DNA of 64,000 nt, from the IMG/VR virus record IMGVR_UViG_3300020196_000017, one strand, 5' to 3'. This document shows positions 1-47,443 of the stretch, piece by piece. A model generated the notes under the pieces. That model was not told the origin of the DNA. It worked only from the letters and a program-made list of their open reading frames with translations, and did not search any database. Source of the DNA: an uncultured virus (IMG/VR IMGVR_UViG_3300020196_000017) (taxonomy: Duplodnaviria > Heunggongvirae > Uroviricota > Caudoviricetes). The translations under genes were made by a program, and so were the position numbers. Numbering within the stretch: the first letter of the stretch is position 1; the number at the start of each line of letters is the position of its first letter.

Positions 1-105
1 TGGCTTGGCACCCTTCTTGGGTGGCACAGCTTTTTTCTTGGCACCGGCTTCCTTGCCAGCTGGAACCATCCCCTTGCCGGGGACAAACTTTTTTTCTGGG
101 GCCAT
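1..105 (-). CDS. small Lys/Pro-rich basic protein (runs off the window edge)
   Basis: ATG at 105 reads MAPEKKFVPGKGMVPAGKEAGAKKKAVPPKKGAKP with no stop before the edge; TATAAT at 128-133 (-). Confidence 0.55.
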   Translation of the reverse strand, partial: MAPEKKFVPGKGMVPAGKEAGAKKKAVPPKKGAKP

Positions 106-2447: not shown

Positions 2448-3824
2448 TCAGCCAAACTCCTTAAGGAATAACTGCAGATCCTCTGGTGTACCGAGCCCAT
2501 GCATGGCACGGACGGGGATTGCGCTAATTTTTTTGCCTTCGTTGATTGCGTAATTGTACGCAGGACAGATGTAAAACTCACCAAGGGTGCGATCGTCAGT
2601 AGCAATCATCTGATCAACGTACTTAACAAAGTCGCTGCCATGTCTCCACCAATACACACCGCAGGTTGCATCATGGCTAATGGGTTTCTTCTCGGCTACT
2701 TCCACAATGTTTGTTGTGCCTGACTCGCGTTTGACATAACTCCACTTGGGATGGGTGCTGTAGAACGTAAAGATTGCACCATCAGCATCGCTGTTTTGTA
2801 ATTGGTACAGACTTTGGATCGGGTCCCATTCCAGGAACTGGTCGCTGTTAAGGATCAGCAAGGGTTGGTCATTGTCAATAATGTCGCGTGCCAGAAGTGC
2901 AGTACATGCCGCACCGTCGGTGATGCCATTGACCGGAACGACAAAAGAACCAGGGGCAATCAAGTTGAGTAGGCTGGGCAGGCTGTACTTTTCGATGTGC
3001 TCTTCTTGGGCAAGAAATGTGTAATTAGCTTTGATACCAACGTTCTCAACAACAAGTTGGATCATCGGCTTACCCAATACGTCAATCAACGGCTTGGGGA
3101 ACGTAAATCCAGCGGCGGCAAAACGTGAGCCACGGCCTGCCATGGGGATCAGGACATTGAGATCATTCATGCGTGGTTGAGGTTTGGCTTTGAGTTTTTC
3201 ATCTACTAAGGTAATAGCTTCTTGAATCTTTTGCTCGGTAAGATCTGCGCGATTCTTGACAGCAATCACTTGAGCGCCAGACTGAAGGGCAGCTTGGATG
3301 CCAACGGCTGAGTCTTCAAAAATTACACAGTCTTTTGGTGTCACACCAAAGTGAATCATGCAGCGCCAATACAATTCGGGATGTGGTTTCTTGTGATGTA
3401 CTTCTTCGGCACTGATGAAGTAGTCGACTAAGGAAAACAAGCCGAGGGAGTGGATGGCATTTTGAACTGACTTGCGAATGCAGTTGGATGCAACGGCGAC
3501 CGCAATGTTCTCTGCTTTGATTTGCTCCAGAAGTTGGAACAGTTGTTTGTCTTTGGCGAGCTGGGAGAAATGATAAGTTGTGATCTTTTGTTTTAAGGCC
3601 CAGATTGTCTCATGAGTCTCGGGTGGAAGATTGCGTTCCTGGCTAAGGCGTTGCAACTTTTCGCTCGTTGGTAAACCATCGAAATAGGCAAGGTGATCTT
3701 CAGTGCTGATCACATACTTTTGGTCAATAGTTGTCAGGGCTTGATTGAGGGCTTCAAAGTGAATGTCTTTGCTATCAACCAGGACACCGTCAAGGTCAAA
3801 ACAGATGAGTTTGGTCATGGTCAA
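2448..3824 (-). CDS. HAD-family phosphatase fused to a sugar-nucleotidyltransferase domain
   Basis: FDLDGVLVDS (HAD motif I), KPHP, FEDS; then IPMAGRGSRF...PKPLI, EKKPIS and LGTPEDL (NTP-transferase). Confidence 0.85.
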   Translation of the reverse strand: MTMTKLICFDLDGVLVDSKDIHFEALNQALTTIDQKYVISTEDHLAYFDGLPTSEKLQRLSQERNLPPETHETIWALKQKITTYHFSQLAKDKQLFQLLEQIKAENIAVAVASNCIRKSVQNAIHSLGLFSLVDYFISAEEVHHKKPHPELYWRCMIHFGVTPKDCVIFEDSAVGIQAALQSGAQVIAVKNRADLTEQKIQEAITLVDEKLKAKPQPRMNDLNVLIPMAGRGSRFAAAGFTFPKPLIDVLGKPMIQLVVENVGIKANYTFLAQEEHIEKYSLPSLLNLIAPGSFVVPVNGITDGAACTALLARDIIDNDQPLLILNSDQFLEWDPIQSLYQLQNSDADGAIFTFYSTHPKWSYVKRESGTTNIVEVAEKKPISHDATCGVYWWRHGSDFVKYVDQMIATDDRTLGEFYICPAYNYAINEGKKISAIPVRAMHGLGTPEDLQLFLKEFG

Positions 3825-5377
3825 AGCCTCTGTCCTTTGTTGGCATCAACTTGGCTGAAGAACTTTTGATCCCTGTGCTCTTTCTGGTGATAAACCGTGC
3901 AGTTGTAAGCGCACTTGAAATGCACAAACGGACGTAAGCGATTCGTCCACTCCAGGTCTTCTTCCTGCATGTGACCCAGGGATTCATTGAAGGGTACTTC
4001 CAGGAGCAGGTCTCTGTGGACGCAGAAGATATTGCCTGAGATGTACACATCTCCTTGGTGTTGCCAGTCGCTGTAGTTGTAAAAGACACGTCGATCTAAT
4101 TCCCGTGGACCATCGAAGCCACTCCAGTCGTACCAAAACCTTTTACCATCTACGCGTTGTTGCGGGAACGCAAGTACAGACCAGGGATATTCCAACTCGA
4201 AACGGTGGAGTGCTTGGTACCAGTGGGGGCTGAGTGTTAAGTAGTCATGTAGTAAACAAAGGCGTTCATATTGTGCTTCTTGGGCAAGCACATTCTTTTT
4301 CTTGGTAATCCACAGGCGACGTACTGATTCATCGAAAGGAATGAACCGAAGGTTTGGATGAGCCAGATCTGTAGCTAAATCTTCGGGGCATTCAGGACCA
4401 ATCAAAAGAATTTCATATTCATCCAGGTCTTGGGCGTGGATTGAATTGACACATGTAATAAGGTGTTCTGGATTGTCGTACCCAGTGCAAATACCGAAGG
4501 TGATTGGTGTTTCGTGGTAGTAGTCCTGATTGGAAAATGTATATTTTTGTGACATCTCCAGGCGTTTGCGGTGATGCGCAACAACCTCAGCGGAGGGAAC
4601 TACTTCAACGTCATGTTTGATTTCGGCATGGATGAGTGGGTCAACAATGACTTCATATCCATTGTCACGAAGGGAACGGCAAAAAGCCCAGTGCTCGCAA
4701 CCTGCTTTTCCGTCCCATTGGACATTGAATTCCAGGGCGTCTGCTTTGATTAGTGCGACTGAACCAAAGGCACTCGATACACTTACCGGTTCTTCTGCCT
4801 CCCAGGTTTCACGGTCAATTGGAGACAGGAATGGGTTGGAGGCGAAGGTCATCGCCTGGTTACCATCGGCATCAATCAATGCCCAGCTGTCGTAATAAGA
4901 CGGCAAGCCAGTCTCTTCAATAGCATCGGTAACGTCTTGAACAGTATTGGGTGTGATCATGCCCCAGCTGGGGTTGTCGTCCAGGGCGTCAACCATTCGT
5001 TGAATCTGGTCGGGACGGAAGGCCACATTGGTATCGGCCACCAGGAGATAATCGAAATCCCAGTAGTCAAGGAGTTGCAGGCACATGTTGCGGTACCGTG
5101 CCAACCACTGGGTTCGTTCGGTTGACTGGACACTTCCCCATTGTTTGGAATCATTGTGCTCACTGATGAGAAACCCTTTACGGGTGTCAAGCCAGGAACG
5201 CAGGACAAATGGGGTTGTATCTGTGGAGTCGTTCTCCAGAAATGCGTAGATGAATCGATATTTTTGGGGGATCAGCTCGTCTTCCAGCCACTCGTAGTTG
5301 GCAACGGTTTGTTCGGTTCCTTGTCCATTGTTGCGCCACAAAGTGAGAACGGCGATACGCTTGGCAACTGGCGGCAT
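3821..5377 (-). CDS. two-domain GT-A glycosyltransferase (CAP59/Anp1-like N-domain plus GT2-like C-domain)
   Basis: ENDSTDTT, LARYRN, YYDSWAL, SAFG and CEH in the N-domain; WITKKKN, LLHDY and EED in the C-domain. Confidence 0.75.
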   Translation of the reverse strand: MPPVAKRIAVLTLWRNNGQGTEQTVANYEWLEDELIPQKYRFIYAFLENDSTDTTPFVLRSWLDTRKGFLISEHNDSKQWGSVQSTERTQWLARYRNMCLQLLDYWDFDYLLVADTNVAFRPDQIQRMVDALDDNPSWGMITPNTVQDVTDAIEETGLPSYYDSWALIDADGNQAMTFASNPFLSPIDRETWEAEEPVSVSSAFGSVALIKADALEFNVQWDGKAGCEHWAFCRSLRDNGYEVIVDPLIHAEIKHDVEVVPSAEVVAHHRKRLEMSQKYTFSNQDYYHETPITFGICTGYDNPEHLITCVNSIHAQDLDEYEILLIGPECPEDLATDLAHPNLRFIPFDESVRRLWITKKKNVLAQEAQYERLCLLHDYLTLSPHWYQALHRFELEYPWSVLAFPQQRVDGKRFWYDWSGFDGPRELDRRVFYNYSDWQHQGDVYISGNIFCVHRDLLLEVPFNESLGHMQEEDLEWTNRLRPFVHFKCAYNCTVYHQKEHRDQKFFSQVDANKGQRL

Positions 5378-42074: not shown

Positions 42075-42106
42075 TTATTTTTCCTTTGTTGTGTTTATGT
42101 TATTTA

Positions 42107-43258
42107 TCAGACGCTACCGTCATCAGACACAAAGCTGTAGGCGGTGGTCACGAAGTCCTTGTTCAGGATCTCGAAGCCAGCGTACAGTTGCCAGATGAGG
42201 ATGATGAAACGGCTGAAGTCGTCGTTGTTGTTGATCAGCACCTGAGCGTTCGGACCGCCGATACCAACGCCAATGGCTTGAGGACCGAAGAAGAAACCTT
42301 GGGCAACTTCTTGGTTGGCATAAGGGGCAGCGCCGGTGAAAGAAGCCGAAACGTTCTTGGTCGGGAAGTTGGTCGACTCGAAGAACTTAACGCCTTCAAA
42401 CTGAACACCAGTCGGCATGACGGGTTCACCAGCCAGGAAATAAGCCTGACCAGCTTGGGGACCCATGTAGAAGCTGGCGTTGTTAGGCATCATGGGGTTG
42501 CCCATGTACATGCCTTGGCCAGGATTGCCAGCGTAACGAGCAATTTCACGGAAGTCGGGATCACGACGCAGGTGCATCATGAAGGTGGGATCGCAGATGC
42601 AACGATACAGACCATCAGCGAAGGTAGGAACGTTACGCTTGCGCAGATCCTTGACAACAGTCAGAAGGTCGGTACGCACCGAGAACTGCTGCACATCAGC
42701 GGTGTACTCAGCGGAGCTGTAAGTAACTTGGCTGGAAGAGTTCTTGGCTTTGTTACCAGGGAAGTAGTAACCACCTTGGGTGCTGGAAGCTTGACCATTG
42801 GCATCAGCTTTGGCCAGTTCGTCAATGAAGACGCGGTCACGCCAACGGCGATAGTCATCAAGCAGCGTCAGGCTACCGATCGACTGGTGGAACATATTCA
42901 GGTTGCCGGTGTCCAGCAGCAGACGCTGGGCGGTAACCAGGGTTTCACGAGCAATCTTGAAGGTGCTGGGCTGGGTCGGATCGCCCGGATCAGCAGGGCC
43001 GGTGTACTCTTTCAGCACAACAAGCACCTTCTCTTTGGTGATGTTGCGGCTGTTAGCGGTACCGATGGTTTGGTCAGCCACGCGCTCACGGCTGTCCTTG
43101 GTACCAGGAGTACCCCAGAACTTATAGCGGTCGAGCTGAACGGTTTGACCAGGCTGACGAGTGAAGTCGTGAACAACCACGGGCTCCACAGCCATCTCGG
43201 CAATATATGCAGGGTGCGGACGATAGAGTTCCGCGCCTAAAATCTTTGGAAAATCGTT
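42107..43258 (-). CDS. major capsid protein, exon 2 (spliced CDS joins 44091-44080 to 43258-42107; 387 aa)
   Basis: Frame extends 21 codons upstream of the listed ATG (NDFPKILGAELYRPHPAYIAE-MAVEP...); capsid-like PGQTVQL, CICDP and DDFSR; follows portal and scaffold. Confidence 0.85.
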   Translation of the reverse strand, partial: NDFPKILGAELYRPHPAYIAEMAVEPVVVHDFTRQPGQTVQLDRYKFWGTPGTKDSRERVADQTIGTANSRNITKEKVLVVLKEYTGPADPGDPTQPSTFKIARETLVTAQRLLLDTGNLNMFHQSIGSLTLLDDYRRWRDRVFIDELAKADANGQASSTQGGYYFPGNKAKNSSSQVTYSSAEYTADVQQFSVRTDLLTVVKDLRKRNVPTFADGLYRCICDPTFMMHLRRDPDFREIARYAGNPGQGMYMGNPMMPNNASFYMGPQAGQAYFLAGEPVMPTGVQFEGVKFFESTNFPTKNVSASFTGAAPYANQEVAQGFFFGPQAIGVGIGGPNAQVLINNNDDFSRFIILIWQLYAGFEILNKDFVTTAYSFVSDDGSV

Positions 43259-44079
43259 CTCCTGGTCCCTAATTTCTTAGAGGGGTGGACTATCTCTTCA
43301 TCCCTGTGGGATGCCGGACGCTAAATCTGGTATTACGTAACAAGATCGTGTTACCCCCAGTAGTCTCTGCACCTTCCAATCACGGGCTTGATTGGCTTGG
43401 CTCAGGATTACCCTCGTCTTTACGTTAGGGCTTCCCTGAATTCATCCGGTTTGCACTCATCAATTACTCGATGAGGTGACAACGTTGAGCGTTCAGTTGA
43501 GGTATGATTTGGAAACCTGTTCATAAACAACATGGATCCAAAATTAGTTCCTGGATTTGGTAACCTTTACTTAACAGAAAGAGGAGAAGCTTTTGAAAAA
43601 CAACTTGATGAAAACAACCAAGAATATTTTCAAAAAATTGCAATTAGCTCAACCAGTACTTATGACCGTATTTCTGTTCTTGTAAATGGAAGAAGAAAGA
43701 GGTTTCATCTTCACGTCTTGATGGCTATTGCTTTTTTAGGGTTAGATCTTCGTTCACATGGAACAAATAATTTTTCCCTTCAAGTAGATCACAAGGACAA
43801 CAACAAAAGAAATAACTGCGTCGATAACCTTGAAATCGTAACCAAACAAGAAAATCTTACAAGAGCTTGGGAAACCGGTTGTTACAAGAACAATGGTTTT
43901 GCTAGTAAAGGCAGACCGAAAAAAACTTTAAGAAAATTTTCTTCGGAAGACGTGAAGCAAATTAAAACTTTAAAAGAAGCAGGACTTTCTTATCGAAAGA
44001 TTGCGGAAAAGTTTAACTGCAATCACGGTGCTATTTACCAAATCCTAAAAGGAAATACCTACCAGGATCTGAACTAGCT
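43259..44079 (-). mobile_element. group I self-splicing intron (821 nt) carrying a homing endonuclease
   Basis: P AAUUCAGGGAAGCC, Q AAUCCUGAGCCAAG, R GUGCAGAGACUAC, S GAAGAGAUAGUCC; P3 and P7 pair; 5' exon ends in U, intron ends in G; IGS CGUUGUCA. Confidence 0.9.
43532..44077 (+). CDS. HNH homing endonuclease with C-terminal HTH, intron-encoded, antisense to the host gene
   Basis: HVLMAIAF...VDHKDNNKRNNCVDNLEIVTKQEN; LSYRKIAEKFNCNHGAIYQI. Confidence 0.88.
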   Translation: MDPKLVPGFGNLYLTERGEAFEKQLDENNQEYFQKIAISSTSTYDRISVLVNGRRKRFHLHVLMAIAFLGLDLRSHGTNNFSLQVDHKDNNKRNNCVDNLEIVTKQENLTRAWETGCYKNNGFASKGRPKKTLRKFSSEDVKQIKTLKEAGLSYRKIAEKFNCNHGAIYQILKGNTYQDLN

Positions 44080-44091
44080 ATCAATAAACAC
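44080..44091 (-). CDS. major capsid protein, exon 1 (GTG TTT ATT GAT = MFID)
   Basis: GGAGG SD at 44102-44106, 10 nt upstream; unspliced frame stops two codons later (AGC TAG). Confidence 0.8.
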
Positions 44092-44186
44092 CTTGGTTTA
44101 TCCTCCAGTGTTAATTTTGTTATCGGGTGAGAAGACTTGGCTTTTGCCTCATCTACTACAAATTGTAGCAGTCAGTAATTTATTTA

Positions 44187-44726
44187 TTACGTGTACTGCA
44201 TGGTAGGTGCTTTATAACGAGCACCCATCGAATTACTGGAGCCATAAGACTCCGGATCAACTACAGCTTGCTGGAATCCAGGGAGACCCATGGCACCAGG
44301 AATAGCGCCAAGGGCTACACCGCCAAGACCGGCAGCAGCAGCAGAAGCAGGAACTAAACCAAGAGCCACGTTCCTACCTAGCACACGCGTAGTTGCCGCA
44401 GTTGCTTCAGGAATAGAACCTGCGCCACCTGCTACATCAGCTAGCTCCAACAGAGCTTTCTGACGTAAACCGCCTTCACGCATCTTTGTTGCTTGTTCAA
44501 AAAGGAAGTCCTGTTGTTCTTGGCCCAAATTTTGGATACCTTTTACCATTTGAGGAGCGTACTTCCCGGCTAGAGCACGTGCCCCAAGTAAACCAGCTGC
44601 ACCACCAAGACCACCGGCCGCAGCAGCAAGTGCCGCAGAACCGGGATCCTCTCCTTGAGAAAGGGCGTACCCACCCGTGGCTAAGCCAGCAGCAATAGGT
44701 ACGCCATAAGCTAAGCGCTTACGCAT
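44187..44726 (-). CDS. Gly/Ala-rich hydrophobic protein
   Basis: 179 aa with several AG-rich hydrophobic stretches. Confidence 0.65.
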   Translation of the reverse strand: MRKRLAYGVPIAAGLATGGYALSQGEDPGSAALAAAAGGLGGAAGLLGARALAGKYAPQMVKGIQNLGQEQQDFLFEQATKMREGGLRQKALLELADVAGGAGSIPEATAATTRVLGRNVALGLVPASAAAAGLGGVALGAIPGAMGLPGFQQAVVDPESYGSSNSMGARYKAPTMQYT

Positions 44727-44730
44727 CGCC

Positions 44731-45696
44731 TTACTCCATCACAAACAGTTTGTTTGCCAGCGTTTGAGGCTGAGCTTGGTTCATGAGCCGCCAGGCGTTC
44801 TGGGGATCACGAGCCATTTGCTCGCTGAAATTAGCCCAGAAGTTTTCAGGTTGCTGAGGAGCATCAGCAGCCGGAGGGGCAGGGAACTGATTCATGGCAG
44901 TAGGTTGCACAGCTTCGGTGCGATAACCAGGACGCTCAAGTTCCACTTCGTTTTCGTACACGGGGTACGGACCTTCAGGACCAAAGAACTTCAGGGTGTA
45001 ATCACTGAGAACGTCAGGATTAGTCAGGATTTCGTTGTACGCCAGGTTCTCTTGATGCTCATTAACAGCAAACTGGGCGTAACCCTGAATGGTATCAGCG
45101 GCGCGGTTTCCCCACGCGACGGCGCTGTCCAGCATTGCCTCCAGATTCAGGGCGTAGTTGTTCAGAAGGGCGGGTGCCTCGATTCCGAACGCGTCCATTA
45201 CTTGGCGGCTGTCCTGGCTCATTCCCAACTGGTCCGCGAGCGCCACCAAGGAGGGAGCTGACGAGGTTTGGGAAGAGTTGGGCGATAAGGCCGGGTTGGC
45301 TTGCCAGGTCTGCGGAGCCGATTGTTGCGTAACTTGGGCGCTGGCTTGTTGGCCGTAGTTCGCCGGGGAATACTGAGTCGTCGGCTGCGAGGGTTGACCC
45401 TGGAACGGGGATTGGACTGGTGCGCTCAGCAGATTCACCACCTTGTTGAACGCCGATTCCCACGGATTCGAGATAGTTTCCGAGGTCGTCGGGGATTGGG
45501 GGGCGTACTGAGTAGGGGCTGATTGGTAATTGGGGGCCGCCTGCGGCACCGCTTGGGGGTAACTGGTACCCACCTGATACGGCACCGGAGCCGGGGAGGC
45601 TGCCTGTTGCGGAGCTGCCACCACGTAGCTGCTCGGAGCGACGGCTGCGGGTGCTGGGCTCGTCTGTGGGATCGATTGGACGGTAGCGTCCTGCAT
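44731..45696 (-). CDS. putative capsid scaffolding protein
   Basis: Gln/Pro/Ala-rich, lies between portal and MCP; AAGGAG SD upstream of the ATG. Confidence 0.6.
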   Translation of the reverse strand: MQDATVQSIPQTSPAPAAVAPSSYVVAAPQQAASPAPVPYQVGTSYPQAVPQAAPNYQSAPTQYAPQSPTTSETISNPWESAFNKVVNLLSAPVQSPFQGQPSQPTTQYSPANYGQQASAQVTQQSAPQTWQANPALSPNSSQTSSAPSLVALADQLGMSQDSRQVMDAFGIEAPALLNNYALNLEAMLDSAVAWGNRAADTIQGYAQFAVNEHQENLAYNEILTNPDVLSDYTLKFFGPEGPYPVYENEVELERPGYRTEAVQPTAMNQFPAPPAADAPQQPENFWANFSEQMARDPQNAWRLMNQAQPQTLANKLFVME

Positions 45697-47443
45697 AACT
45701 CATCTCCTTTTGTAAGGCCTCTAATGTTCGATACAGATATGGGGTTAAATCCAGTCTTGGATCCGCAGCCATCGGAAGATCCGGTGATTGCGGGTGAGGA
45801 GTCTGCATCATGCCCCCCACTAAACGAGCGAAAGAAGAATATGCATTCTGCAATTCGCCCACCATCCTGAACGGGAACCCAGATAACATCTCGGCCCGCT
45901 CCTCATCCGTCTTGGACGGGAAGAGGTATTTCAGTGCCTCAATGCTATCAACACCTAATTCCTGAAGGTTGCGCACCACAATGGAGTTGTTCAGGATGTC
46001 CTGTGTTGAATCCTCGTATACGGGACCCAACCAACGCCATTGAACAGTAATGTCACCATCGGGAATTAGCCCCAGCACCCCTGGAGGAATCTGCTGGGTT
46101 TTAACGCATGCCATCATTAATTGCTTTACTTGATCTTCAAAAGCAGTCAACGCATCTGCATAAAGCGCCAACTCGTTTTCATCAGCATTTTCGTCCGGCT
46201 CAACAGGTTTTTCAAGACCTGCTGCAGCTGCCAATGTGGTGCGGAAAATCTGCTCTTCTTGATAAATAATTAATTCAAGACAGCGACAAATGCCATACGT
46301 ATACACAGCATTTGCTTTTTTCTTTGATGTTGCCGAAACACGTCCAAATAAGGACTTGTACTCTGTTGCCGTTACACCAGCGGAAATAGACAGTTCATCA
46401 ACACCGCCCAATGCCGTACGAATTTCTTCGCGGTATTGACGAGCAAATGAATTTTGATCACCAGTAATAGCATCTGGAACAATGTAACCAACTCGATCGT
46501 TTGGTTCCAGGTTTGCAATGACTCGTGGAACACGGATTTGACCGTCAATGCCACGAGCTAAAGGATCAGATTTAAACCGAGACTGGCTTAAGCTGCCCAT
46601 CCCAGTAAAGCCTGAATTAGCTGCAATGGAAGGGCGTTGAACAACGGTGTCACCACCAGCTTCCATCAGGTCAGTCTTAGGCCTGGAAGAAAGAAGAGTA
46701 GGATTACCAAAGAACTGAACGTTCTTACGCATGGTGCGAACCATTTCGTCATGCGTAACAATGTGATTGGCGAGTGCATCAAACTCACCAAATCCTTCAG
46801 TTGAAAAGCCTTTGGGGTTATTAAAGATTTCAACACAAGGGATAAACCCTAATGTGTTACGAAATGTTTTTGTTTTACCAGGGGTTGCATAGCTGGGTTG
46901 ATCGAATGAAATTTCACCTTCCGCATGCGTTTCTTCAATCGTTTTTCTTTTGATCGAAAGTTTGATATAACGTCGCGCACCTTGATTAATCGTGGCTGGA
47001 CCTGTCAATTTGGTTGCCGCAATATCTTGATCAAACCCAATACCACGACGAACTTTATAGCTGTAGATAATTACGACTTCGTCCAGTTCTCCATCGATGT
47101 TGTAATACGTCCGATACTCATGTTTGCGGAAGTAATACATTCTGTAATTACTGTCCGTGGGACGGATATAAAAAAGTCCTTGTCCGTCACAAAGAAAATA
47201 ATCCCAGACTGAATCTAAGCGTGTATCAATTTGATTGTACTTAAGAACGCGAGTGACAAAGTCCTTGCGTTGATTCCCAAAATTATCTTGCGCTGGAAAA
47301 AACTCAACCCCTTGGCGAATGCCAAAAAGTTTCATTTGTGCTAAATGAGACGCAATGACCCCAGTATCGACCATTGCGCTACCGTCTCGTTCCAGGTAGG
47401 CGTCAATGATTTCTTTTAAGCGAGATTTTGCGTCAGCAGCCAT
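45095..47443 (-). CDS. putative portal protein with long C-terminal extension
   Basis: 782-aa ORF between TerL and scaffold/MCP; function assigned from synteny and size. Confidence 0.65.
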   Translation of the reverse strand: MAADAKSRLKEIIDAYLERDGSAMVDTGVIASHLAQMKLFGIRQGVEFFPAQDNFGNQRKDFVTRVLKYNQIDTRLDSVWDYFLCDGQGLFYIRPTDSNYRMYYFRKHEYRTYYNIDGELDEVVIIYSYKVRRGIGFDQDIAATKLTGPATINQGARRYIKLSIKRKTIEETHAEGEISFDQPSYATPGKTKTFRNTLGFIPCVEIFNNPKGFSTEGFGEFDALANHIVTHDEMVRTMRKNVQFFGNPTLLSSRPKTDLMEAGGDTVVQRPSIAANSGFTGMGSLSQSRFKSDPLARGIDGQIRVPRVIANLEPNDRVGYIVPDAITGDQNSFARQYREEIRTALGGVDELSISAGVTATEYKSLFGRVSATSKKKANAVYTYGICRCLELIIYQEEQIFRTTLAAAAGLEKPVEPDENADENELALYADALTAFEDQVKQLMMACVKTQQIPPGVLGLIPDGDITVQWRWLGPVYEDSTQDILNNSIVVRNLQELGVDSIEALKYLFPSKTDEERAEMLSGFPFRMVGELQNAYSSFARLVGGMMQTPHPQSPDLPMAADPRLDLTPYLYRTLEALQKEMSYAGRYRPIDPTDEPSTRSRRSEQLRGGSSATGSLPGSGAVSGGYQLPPSGAAGGPQLPISPYSVRPPIPDDLGNYLESVGIGVQQGGESAERTSPIPVPGSTLAADDSVFPGELRPTSQRPSYATIGSADLASQPGLIAQLFPNLVSSLLGGARGPVGNEPGQPPSNGRVRNRGTRPSEQLRPESGGNAGQRRRVGKPRR

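Follow-up and report, generated by a model that had tools for sequence, protein, structure and literature searches.

A mobile group I intron with an antisense homing-endonuclease gene in the major capsid gene of an S-EIV1-like cyanophage

How can a major capsid gene whose reading frame stops after four codons give rise to a capsid protein, and where does such a gene begin? This question is raised by a 64,000-nt stretch of DNA from an uncultured virus (IMG/VR record IMGVR_UViG_3300020196_000017; the whole stretch is called the window hereafter, and all coordinates refer to it), in which the capsid gene lies on the minus strand. A Shine-Dalgarno sequence GGAGG (44102..44106, minus strand) is followed by GTG TTT ATT GAT, encoding MFID (exon 1; 44080..44091, minus strand), after which the frame continues as AGC TAG, an in-frame stop. 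The frame resumes 821 nt downstream, at 43258. A preliminary description, made from the sequence alone, had explained this arrangement by a group I intron in the major capsid gene, and all of its coordinates could be confirmed. Here, we describe the element as a mobile group I intron of an S-EIV1-like cyanophage, located in the major capsid gene, where it separates codon 4 from codon 5. The preliminary description had overlooked an open reading frame (ORF) of 181 codons for a homing endonuclease on the opposite strand of the intron. On the basis of the sequence comparisons reported below, the intron is very probably functional, and its removal would join MFID to NDFPK.

The interrupted capsid gene and its intronless relatives

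Exon 2 (42107..43258, minus strand) begins with AAC GAT TTT CCA AAG and comprises 383 codons and a stop codon. Its ORF matched PHROG 1357 'major head protein' (2.6e-17). Searches of the capsid protein against Pfam, even at E 10, and against PDB sequences gave no match, and a fold search was therefore used. The AlphaFold2 model, which was built from an alignment of 35 diverse homologues (pLDDT 83.2, pTM 0.83), was matched by Foldseek to the capsid of cyanophage P-SCSP1u in the PDB (E 1.4e-13) and then to Pan3, Ralstonia GP4, T7 and HK97. As judged from the PHROG match and this predicted fold, the intron interrupts a gene for a major capsid protein of the HK97 fold. The adjoining ORF of 782 aa matched a 'virion structural protein' PHROG at 3.4e-300. 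Synechococcus phage S-EIVl was the sole relative found among isolates, with a capsid protein identity of 85.6%.

At least 597 capsid relatives are present in IMG/VR; the best 80 were examined and, together with S-EIVl, gave 81 loci. The gene was intronless in 62 of these, whereas 14 loci contained the intron with its 5' junction and five contained an intron cut by the end of the contig. All 62 intronless loci read (G/A)TG TTy nTn GAy | A(A/C)y GAy TTy CC, which corresponds to the ligated exons predicted for the window. The capsid gene of S-EIVl is unbroken (GTG TTC ATT GAT ACC GAC TTT CCT AAG, that is, MFIDTDFPKILGAELYRPHPAY) and is preceded by the same Shine-Dalgarno sequence. In the relatives GGAG(G/A)ATA, a spacing of 6-9 nt and a start codon are kept, the start codon being GTG or ATG. 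Thus, the intron of the window (821 nt; 43259..44079, minus strand), which extends from the A of AGC through a terminal G, corresponds to an exact presence/absence polymorphism.

The preliminary description had expected homologues without the intron to start with the joined exons. Intronless genes were indeed found to start with (M/V)FIDNDFPKILGAELYRPHPAY, both in S-EIVl (MFIDTDFPK) and in 62 IMG/VR loci, and the database proteins of intronless alleles are 387 aa long with V/MFIDNDFPK at their N-terminus. The start that it had named as incompatible with an intron, MAVEP, was also looked for and was seen only in products of intron-bearing alleles.

Ribozyme core, guide pairing and tail helix

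To date, a 20-base core pattern has retrieved at least 120 further IMG/VR stretches; among the matches listed, all were located at the same capsid-gene site, more diverged lineages included. Both junctions were available for 93 copies of the intron, 62 of which were distinct (49 long and 13 short, the latter 233-277 nt). The ribozyme core (P2-P9) lies at 43266..43509 on the minus strand. Examination with a covariance model, as the preliminary description had proposed, gave a match to Rfam RF00028 at 94.2 bits (gathering score 50, E 5.6e-23, model positions 1-253 of 253), the only Rfam family in the 64-kb window. Copies from nine relatives scored 74.6-93.7 bits, and RF00028 had no match in the intronless S-EIVl. 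The conserved elements that had been listed before were all present where they had been placed: P (AAUUCAGGGAAGCC, 43442-43429), Q (AAUCCUGAGCCAAG, 43409-43396), R (GUGCAGAGACUAC, 43372-43360) and S (GAAGAGAUAGUCC, 43299-43287), all on the minus strand; the helices P3 (CCGGAUG/CGUCCGG) and P7 (GACUA/UAGUC); a P9 capped by a GAAA loop; the guide; and the terminal G at 43259 (minus strand), the 3' splice site, which is G in all 62 distinct copies as well as in L089 and L096, two further loci.

The secondary structure of this core is supported by covariation. When RNAalifold was applied to the 13 whole introns without the endonuclease gene, P1, P1a, P2, P3, P4, P5, P6, P8 and P9 were recovered. 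With P7 added to this structure as a pseudoknot before pairs were counted, 97.1% of the cells were paired (27-37% when the structure was slid), 19 pairs were compensated and none of 500 shuffles scored as high. Across 56 distinct cores, 99.7% of 2964 cells were paired, compared with 23-40% in slid controls, and compensated changes were found in 21 of 53 pairs (six in P2, three in P3, one in P6, four in P6a, one in P7, two in P8 and four in P9); P4 and P5 were invariant. An extra two-part hairpin resembling P7.1 (43327..43360, minus strand) is located from P7 to the 3' strand of P3 and is an insertion relative to the Rfam model. This region was out of MAFFT register between lineages; it was excluded from the count of 56 cores and its variants were folded singly. 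Each of the 29 distinct variants gave a hairpin in two parts, and many of its pairs were compensated. Extra helices, P7.1/P7.2, that separate P7 from the 3' strand of P3 define subgroup IA of group I introns, and the predicted hairpin may point to this subgroup. Over ∼180 nt, the core shared 75-77% identity with unannotated sequence from jumbo phages of Klebsiella and Escherichia and with sites in terminase genes of Vibrio phages; its identity to the psbA intron of S-CBWM1, which is annotated as group I, was 70.7% over ∼115 nt.

The internal guide (CGUUGUCA; 43477..43484, minus strand) connects this core with both exons. Its GUCA pairs with exon 1 (P1), its GUU with intron positions +1..+3 and its CGUU with AACG of the 3' exon (P10). 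The 5' strand of P1 (44077..44083, minus strand) consists of UGAU of the exon and AGC of the intron, and it pairs with GUUGUCA (43483-43477), with a U.G pair at the splice site. P1 therefore has 7 bp: the assignments of P1 and P10 in the preliminary description are supported by covariation, whereas the 4 bp it allowed for P1 were too few. Among the 62 distinct copies, the exon-guide part of P1 was UGAU/GUCA in 50 and CGAU/GUCG in 12, with no mismatched copy, and U was found at exon position -1 in every copy. The P10 pairing AACG/CGUU was present in 58 of the 62, and one other copy had a U.G wobble at the third pair; between two close minimal introns the third pair was compensated (AAC/GUU in L166, AAU/AUU in L092).

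P1 can be extended by two further stems. In P1a, GUUCAG (44069..44074, minus strand), which on the plus strand encodes the last residues of the endonuclease, pairs with CUGAAC (43496-43491), and four compensated variants were observed (GUUCAG/CUGAAC, GCUCAG/CUGAGC, ACUCAG/CUGAGU and GCUUAG/CUAAGC). In P1b, AGGUAU (44055..44060, minus strand) pairs with AUACCU (43505-43500) and closes the loop that holds the endonuclease gene. The internal loop between P1a and P1b contains UCCUGGU (44061..44067, minus strand), a 7-bp complement of the 3' tail of the intron, ACCAGGA (43266-43260), just before the terminal G. This tail helix was CCUGGU/ACCAGG in 48 distinct copies, CCUGAU/AUCAGG in 10 and a G.U intermediate in one, and in one further distinct copy the tail was altered beside the helix (ACCAGGCG). 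The 233-nt introns of L092 and L166 lack the UCCUGGU segment, and their tail complements the 3' strand of P1 instead (7 bp in L092). The tail helix may be a tether of the 3' splice site to P1, although few independent changes stand behind it.

The antisense endonuclease gene and the homing cycle

The endonuclease gene (43532..44077, plus strand; 181 codons) is antisense to the intron and occupies the span that separates the 5' splice site from the core, its stop codon TAG (44075-44077) being complementary to intron positions +3..+5. The product resembles I-HmuI. It matched the Pfam family HNH_3 (PF13392) at 32.3 bits (cut-off 24.8), its C-terminal helix-turn-helix scored 26.5 against HTH_38, just below the cut-off of 27, and it matched PHROG 59 at 3e-27. 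The closest solved structure was PDB 1U3E 'HNH homing endonuclease' (2.1e-5), which we take to be I-HmuI of Bacillus phage SPO1, an enzyme with an HNH_3 domain and a C-terminal helix-turn-helix that nicks one strand. The gene is present as a single copy in the window, within a 30-kb block of minus-strand genes; the only other plus-strand ORFs of at least 130 aa between 29.4 and 59.7 kb are two frames contained in the capsid and portal genes and antisense to them. Its GC content is 33-37%, compared with 52-60% in the flanks. Of the 49 distinct long copies, 47 contained an intact endonuclease ORF (176-192 aa) and two a truncated one. The median pN/pS was 0.17 (619 pairs), and the endonuclease is under purifying selection. 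Its targets would be the capsid alleles that lack the intron, presumably cut or nicked by the enzyme in the conserved region around the start.

Two observations concern the beginning of this gene. A short inverted repeat, GTTGT...ACAAC with an A/T-rich centre, lies immediately upstream of the ATG (43504-43531, plus strand) and was seen in several lineages. In some relatives an upstream in-frame ATG extends the endonuclease by 3 or 11 residues; in the window this extension is closed by TGA.

Alleles without the endonuclease gene (L037, L049 and others; 268-277 nt) contain a short hairpin in its place, which shows that the gene is a 555-nt insert carried by the loop that caps the extended P1 stem. 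The final codons of the endonuclease and its TAG overlap P1a and intron positions +3..+5, and the endonuclease-less copies of the L037 type have AGCUGG instead of AGCUAG. Two loci, L092 and L166, contain minimal introns of 233 nt with a plain 10-bp P1 hairpin. In L175 the intron has 325 nt, and just both ends of the endonuclease gene are kept. L175 (125-473), L110 and L121 represent stages of endonuclease decay, the ORFs of L110 and L121 being cut to 118 aa.

These endonuclease-less alleles also bear on another explanation of the locus, namely that the endonuclease gene is free-standing and intergenic, and that the intron is only the core of ∼250 nt, with a 5' exon of its own at 43533-43504 (ATG TTG TTT ATG AAC AGG TTT CCA AAT). 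This stretch resembles the ligated exons by eye, and free-standing endonucleases adjoining introns are known in cyanophages. However, its local alignment score of 19 was below that of unrelated matches in the window (25-28), no guide pairing suits it, and in relatives it corresponds to N-terminal coding sequence or leader of the endonuclease on the plus strand. Moreover, the endonuclease-less alleles run from GAT|AGCUGGUUCAG... straight into the core via the short hairpin. We give such an arrangement practically no credence. The same stretch was also considered as a pseudo-exon or operator overlapping the start of the endonuclease gene; this candidate was dropped, as an alignment scan of both strands scored below chance and the stretch is endonuclease leader or coding sequence in relatives.

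The relatives cover all states of the homing cycle, that is, intronless, endonuclease-plus, endonuclease-decayed and endonuclease-less alleles. In a tree of the capsid gene with 81 rows, from which the 30 nt beside the insertion site were left out, the 20 intron-bearing rows required at least 12 changes, 11 of which were forced by well-supported branches, and pairs of loci only ∼1% apart differed in the presence of the intron (for example, L042/L045 and L060/L062). Such patchy presence on the capsid tree is the pattern that characterizes a homing element under active gain and loss.

The intronless loci L026, L047, L050 and L053 have ATT GAC AAC, not ATT GAT AAC, at the insertion site, and the C before the site cannot form the U.G pair; the GAC allele may be a homing-resistant or a post-loss variant. 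It should be noted that G001, the record nearest to the window, ends inside the intron. Altogether, six contigs end within it (L002, at the end of the G001 contig, and the starts of L031, L051, L055, L077 and L078), which suggests that assemblies break at the polymorphic intron site.

Some relatives contain more than one intron in the capsid gene, compared with a single one in the window. In G002 (contig of L112, 3446-7329), Rfam matches and exon mapping by tblastn revealed five introns within the first ∼146 capsid codons, the exons corresponding to residues 1-27, 28-49, 51-84, 84-142 and 141-350 of the exon-2 product of the window (counted from NDFPK). Three introns were found in G004 (contig of L096, 15401-17969): one follows codon 4 of the gene, and the other two break the exon-2 product after residues 44 and 282. 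Except for the shared site after codon 4, the intron sites of G002 and G004 differ, and at least seven insertion sites were seen in the capsid gene. Three of these introns scored 80-90 bits with Rfam and the rest 22-50 bits; some of the latter seem to contain inserts of ∼0.9-1.1 kb.

Splicing, its alternatives and its consequences

RNA libraries from four studies (X1, X2, X10 and X12) were compared with positions 42700-44400 at 85% likeness; the candidate libraries shared at most 0.13 of the sequence words of the query. In each of the four, a contig lacked exactly the 821 bases of the intron and joined 43257/8 to 44079/80. An intron-bearing contig was also present in X2, and X12 contained a 555-base joint, which corresponds to the endonuclease-less form. 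These library sequences are contigs that carry neither strand nor start information, the libraries may contain DNA, and depth cannot rank the parts of the locus. Because intronless DNA alleles exist and DNA may be present in the libraries, the joints are compatible with splicing and are no proof of it.

Several points weigh against a functional intron with an expressed endonuclease gene. First, the joined RNA contigs may derive from near-identical intronless phages or from library DNA. Second, the first helix of the Rfam alignment contains non-standard pairs in the sequence of the window, the exon share of P1 is just 4 bp, and P1 has to close over a loop of 555 nt. Third, no sigma-70-like promoters or intrinsic terminators were found on either strand between 42900 and 44400, and the A/T-rich stretch ahead of the endonuclease ATG, when inspected, showed no convincing promoter spacing. 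Finally, initiation at an internal ATG (43195, MAVEP) could, in principle, yield a capsid protein shorter by 25 residues without splicing.

This last point leads to the possibility that the intron is a decayed relic that does not splice, the capsid protein being made from the internal ATG and the 25 codons upstream of it being disused. The RNA-library joints are ambiguous in this respect, and gene callers do pick the MAVEP start on intron-bearing alleles. On the other hand, the core has been kept through compensatory changes in diverged lineages, and in 62 of 62 distinct copies the intron-bearing alleles retain the Shine-Dalgarno sequence, the start codon, the four codons of exon 1, the U at -1 and the match to the guide. 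In addition, purifying selection acts on the first 22 codons of exon 2, the last of which is the internal ATG, throughout the 80 matched loci, intron-bearing ones included: among 58 distinct sequences, the variable sites were 21 third, three first and two second positions. The regular expression behind this count pinned many first and second positions, yet 80 of the 81 loci fitted it; together with the third-position bias, this indicates that the stretch is coding and that the gene starts at 44091. We thus consider a non-splicing relic very unlikely. That capsid synthesis depends on splicing, as proposed in the preliminary description, is a sound inference; a slight reservation concerns possible initiation at the internal ATG.

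A less drastic alternative is that the intron does splice in vivo but not autonomously, either because a chaperone or maturase of the phage or the host is needed or because splicing is efficient only in the endonuclease-less forms. The short exon part of P1 (4 bp), the long insert in its loop (555 nt, with an antisense gene) and the frequency of short forms (13 of the 62 distinct copies, 233-277 nt) would fit such a dependence. However, the stems P1a and P1b and the 7-bp tail helix flank the insert and covary, which is the usual route by which peripheral ORF inserts are tolerated, and 49 of the 62 distinct copies represent the long form, in a presumably essential gene. We regard such a dependence as unlikely.

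For the functional group I intron preferred here, we infer the following course of splicing in vivo. Folding of the capsid pre-mRNA would pair UGAU, the four bases at the end of exon 1, together with the three bases that open the intron, to GUUGUCA of the guide, and P1 would extend as P1a and P1b, closing over the 555-nt loop. A guanosine bound in P7 would then attack after the U at 44080. The guide would next pair with AACG of exon 2 in P10, the terminal G at 43259 would be displaced and the exons would be ligated as GAU|AAC. The predicted product is MFID|NDFPKILG..., a capsid protein of 387 residues. At the DNA level, the endonuclease encoded in the P1b loop would cut or nick an intronless allele, and repair would copy the intron in (homing).

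It is also worth comparing this element with known systems. The endonuclease of the window has its nearest solved structure in I-HmuI of SPO1 (1U3E). I-HmuI sits inside a group I intron of SPO1's DNA-polymerase gene, on the same strand as the intron, whereas the endonuclease described here is antisense and lies in the P1 loop of a capsid-gene intron. The orf142 gene of Staphylococcus phage Twort reportedly contains three group I introns and would thus resemble the capsid genes of G002 and G004 in being one gene invaded at several sites; the window has one intron. With regard to introns in S-EIV1-like capsid genes, no paper was found in a literature search that excluded supplements and did not cover the S-EIV1 genome paper.

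The preliminary description had assumed that phage introns mostly occur in genes of DNA metabolism; there are published exceptions in capsid genes. In mycobacteriophage LittleE, RT-PCR together with N-terminal sequencing has demonstrated that an intron of ∼819 bp is spliced out of the major capsid gene (Pope et al. 2013, PLoS One, PMC3706429). According to the part of that paper used here, the two introns share the U at the end of exon 1, the G at the end of the intron, a bottom-strand ORF for an endonuclease ('transcribed in the leftwards direction') and an intronless sister phage (PMC3706429). They differ in phage lineage and host and in insertion site, which is deeper in the gene in LittleE and 12 nt past the start here; in addition, the type of the LittleE intron was 'unclear, most likely group I' according to its authors, whereas that of the window fits Rfam at 94 bits (PMC3706429). 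In contrast with the lineage of the window, that part of the LittleE paper describes no series of alleles from a population in which endonuclease-plus, endonuclease-less and intronless states occur side by side (PMC3706429). Lactococcal phage Tuc2009 resembles the window in that a group I intron interrupts a capsid gene, there that of a capsid subunit (as cited in PMC3706429).

The freshwater cyanophage Pf-WMP3, as far as the relevant part of its report goes, has an IA2 intron with the HNH nicking endonuclease I-PfoP3I (PMC3428280). It is similar to the window in having an HNH-bearing group IA-type intron in a protein gene of a cyanophage, but the gene is that of DNA polymerase and not of the capsid (PMC3428280). 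Antisense homing-endonuclease genes, opposite to the ribozyme strand as in the window, are described for nuclear rDNA group I introns in the section of the literature consulted (PMC9548176). These are, however, eukaryotic, encode His-Cys box enzymes, are expressed via spliceosomal introns and are unrelated to phage late genes (PMC9548176). Thus, given the precedent of LittleE, the kind of element is already known, and the intron of the window extends earlier work and overturns nothing.

One practical consequence concerns annotation. The preliminary description had predicted that ORF callers would miss the short first exon and truncate the capsid protein, and this was borne out by two called forms, a 362-aa product starting at MAVEP (P0010, the window's own product) and a 377-aa product starting at LGAELY (P0091). 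Intron-bearing alleles of the widespread S-EIV1-like lineage therefore get a capsid gene annotated 10 or 25 residues short. The GenBank record of S-EIVl, the type phage (L001, KJ410740.1), is itself annotated with a 'hypothetical protein' on the minus strand (2911-3672) and with a short coding sequence (CDS; 3667-4137) on the plus strand. The sequence really contains one capsid ORF of 383 codons (2986-4137) with a GTG start (MFIDTDFPK); the minus-strand CDS is a shadow frame of the capsid gene, and the same shadow ORF is present in the window (42086-43240, plus strand). Elsewhere in the window, an ORF of 321 aa (44731-45696, minus strand) overlaps that of the 782-aa virion protein (45095-47443, minus strand) by ∼600 nt. 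The counterparts in S-EIVl, of 134 and 158 aa, do not overlap, and the 321-aa long form is probably an artefact of first-start-codon choice.

A further possibility is that the position of the intron matters beyond selfish DNA, through a splicing gate, an antisense layer and the tail helix, which may be a tether of a kind not described before, drawing the 3' splice site to P1 across the 555-nt insert. The 5' splice site is 12 nt past the start codon, within the footprint of an initiating ribosome. A ribosome on unspliced RNA would cover the whole 5' strand of P1 and halt six bases into the intron, at the UAG. The loading of ribosomes and the formation of P1 would then be mutually exclusive, and splicing could in this way gate the timing and amount of capsid protein; antisense transcription of the endonuclease gene could run against the capsid pre-mRNA and act as a second layer. 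We consider this joint reading rather doubtful and offer it tentatively.

More generally, the locus provides natural alleles for every stage of the homing cycle at a single site of a presumably essential late gene, with no fewer than 12 gains or losses across a small tree, and compact ribozymes of 233-277 nt with rich covariation that are directly testable. If the joint reading of intron position is true, the capsid genes with three and five introns in relatives would represent a natural system for the effect of intron load on a highly expressed late gene.

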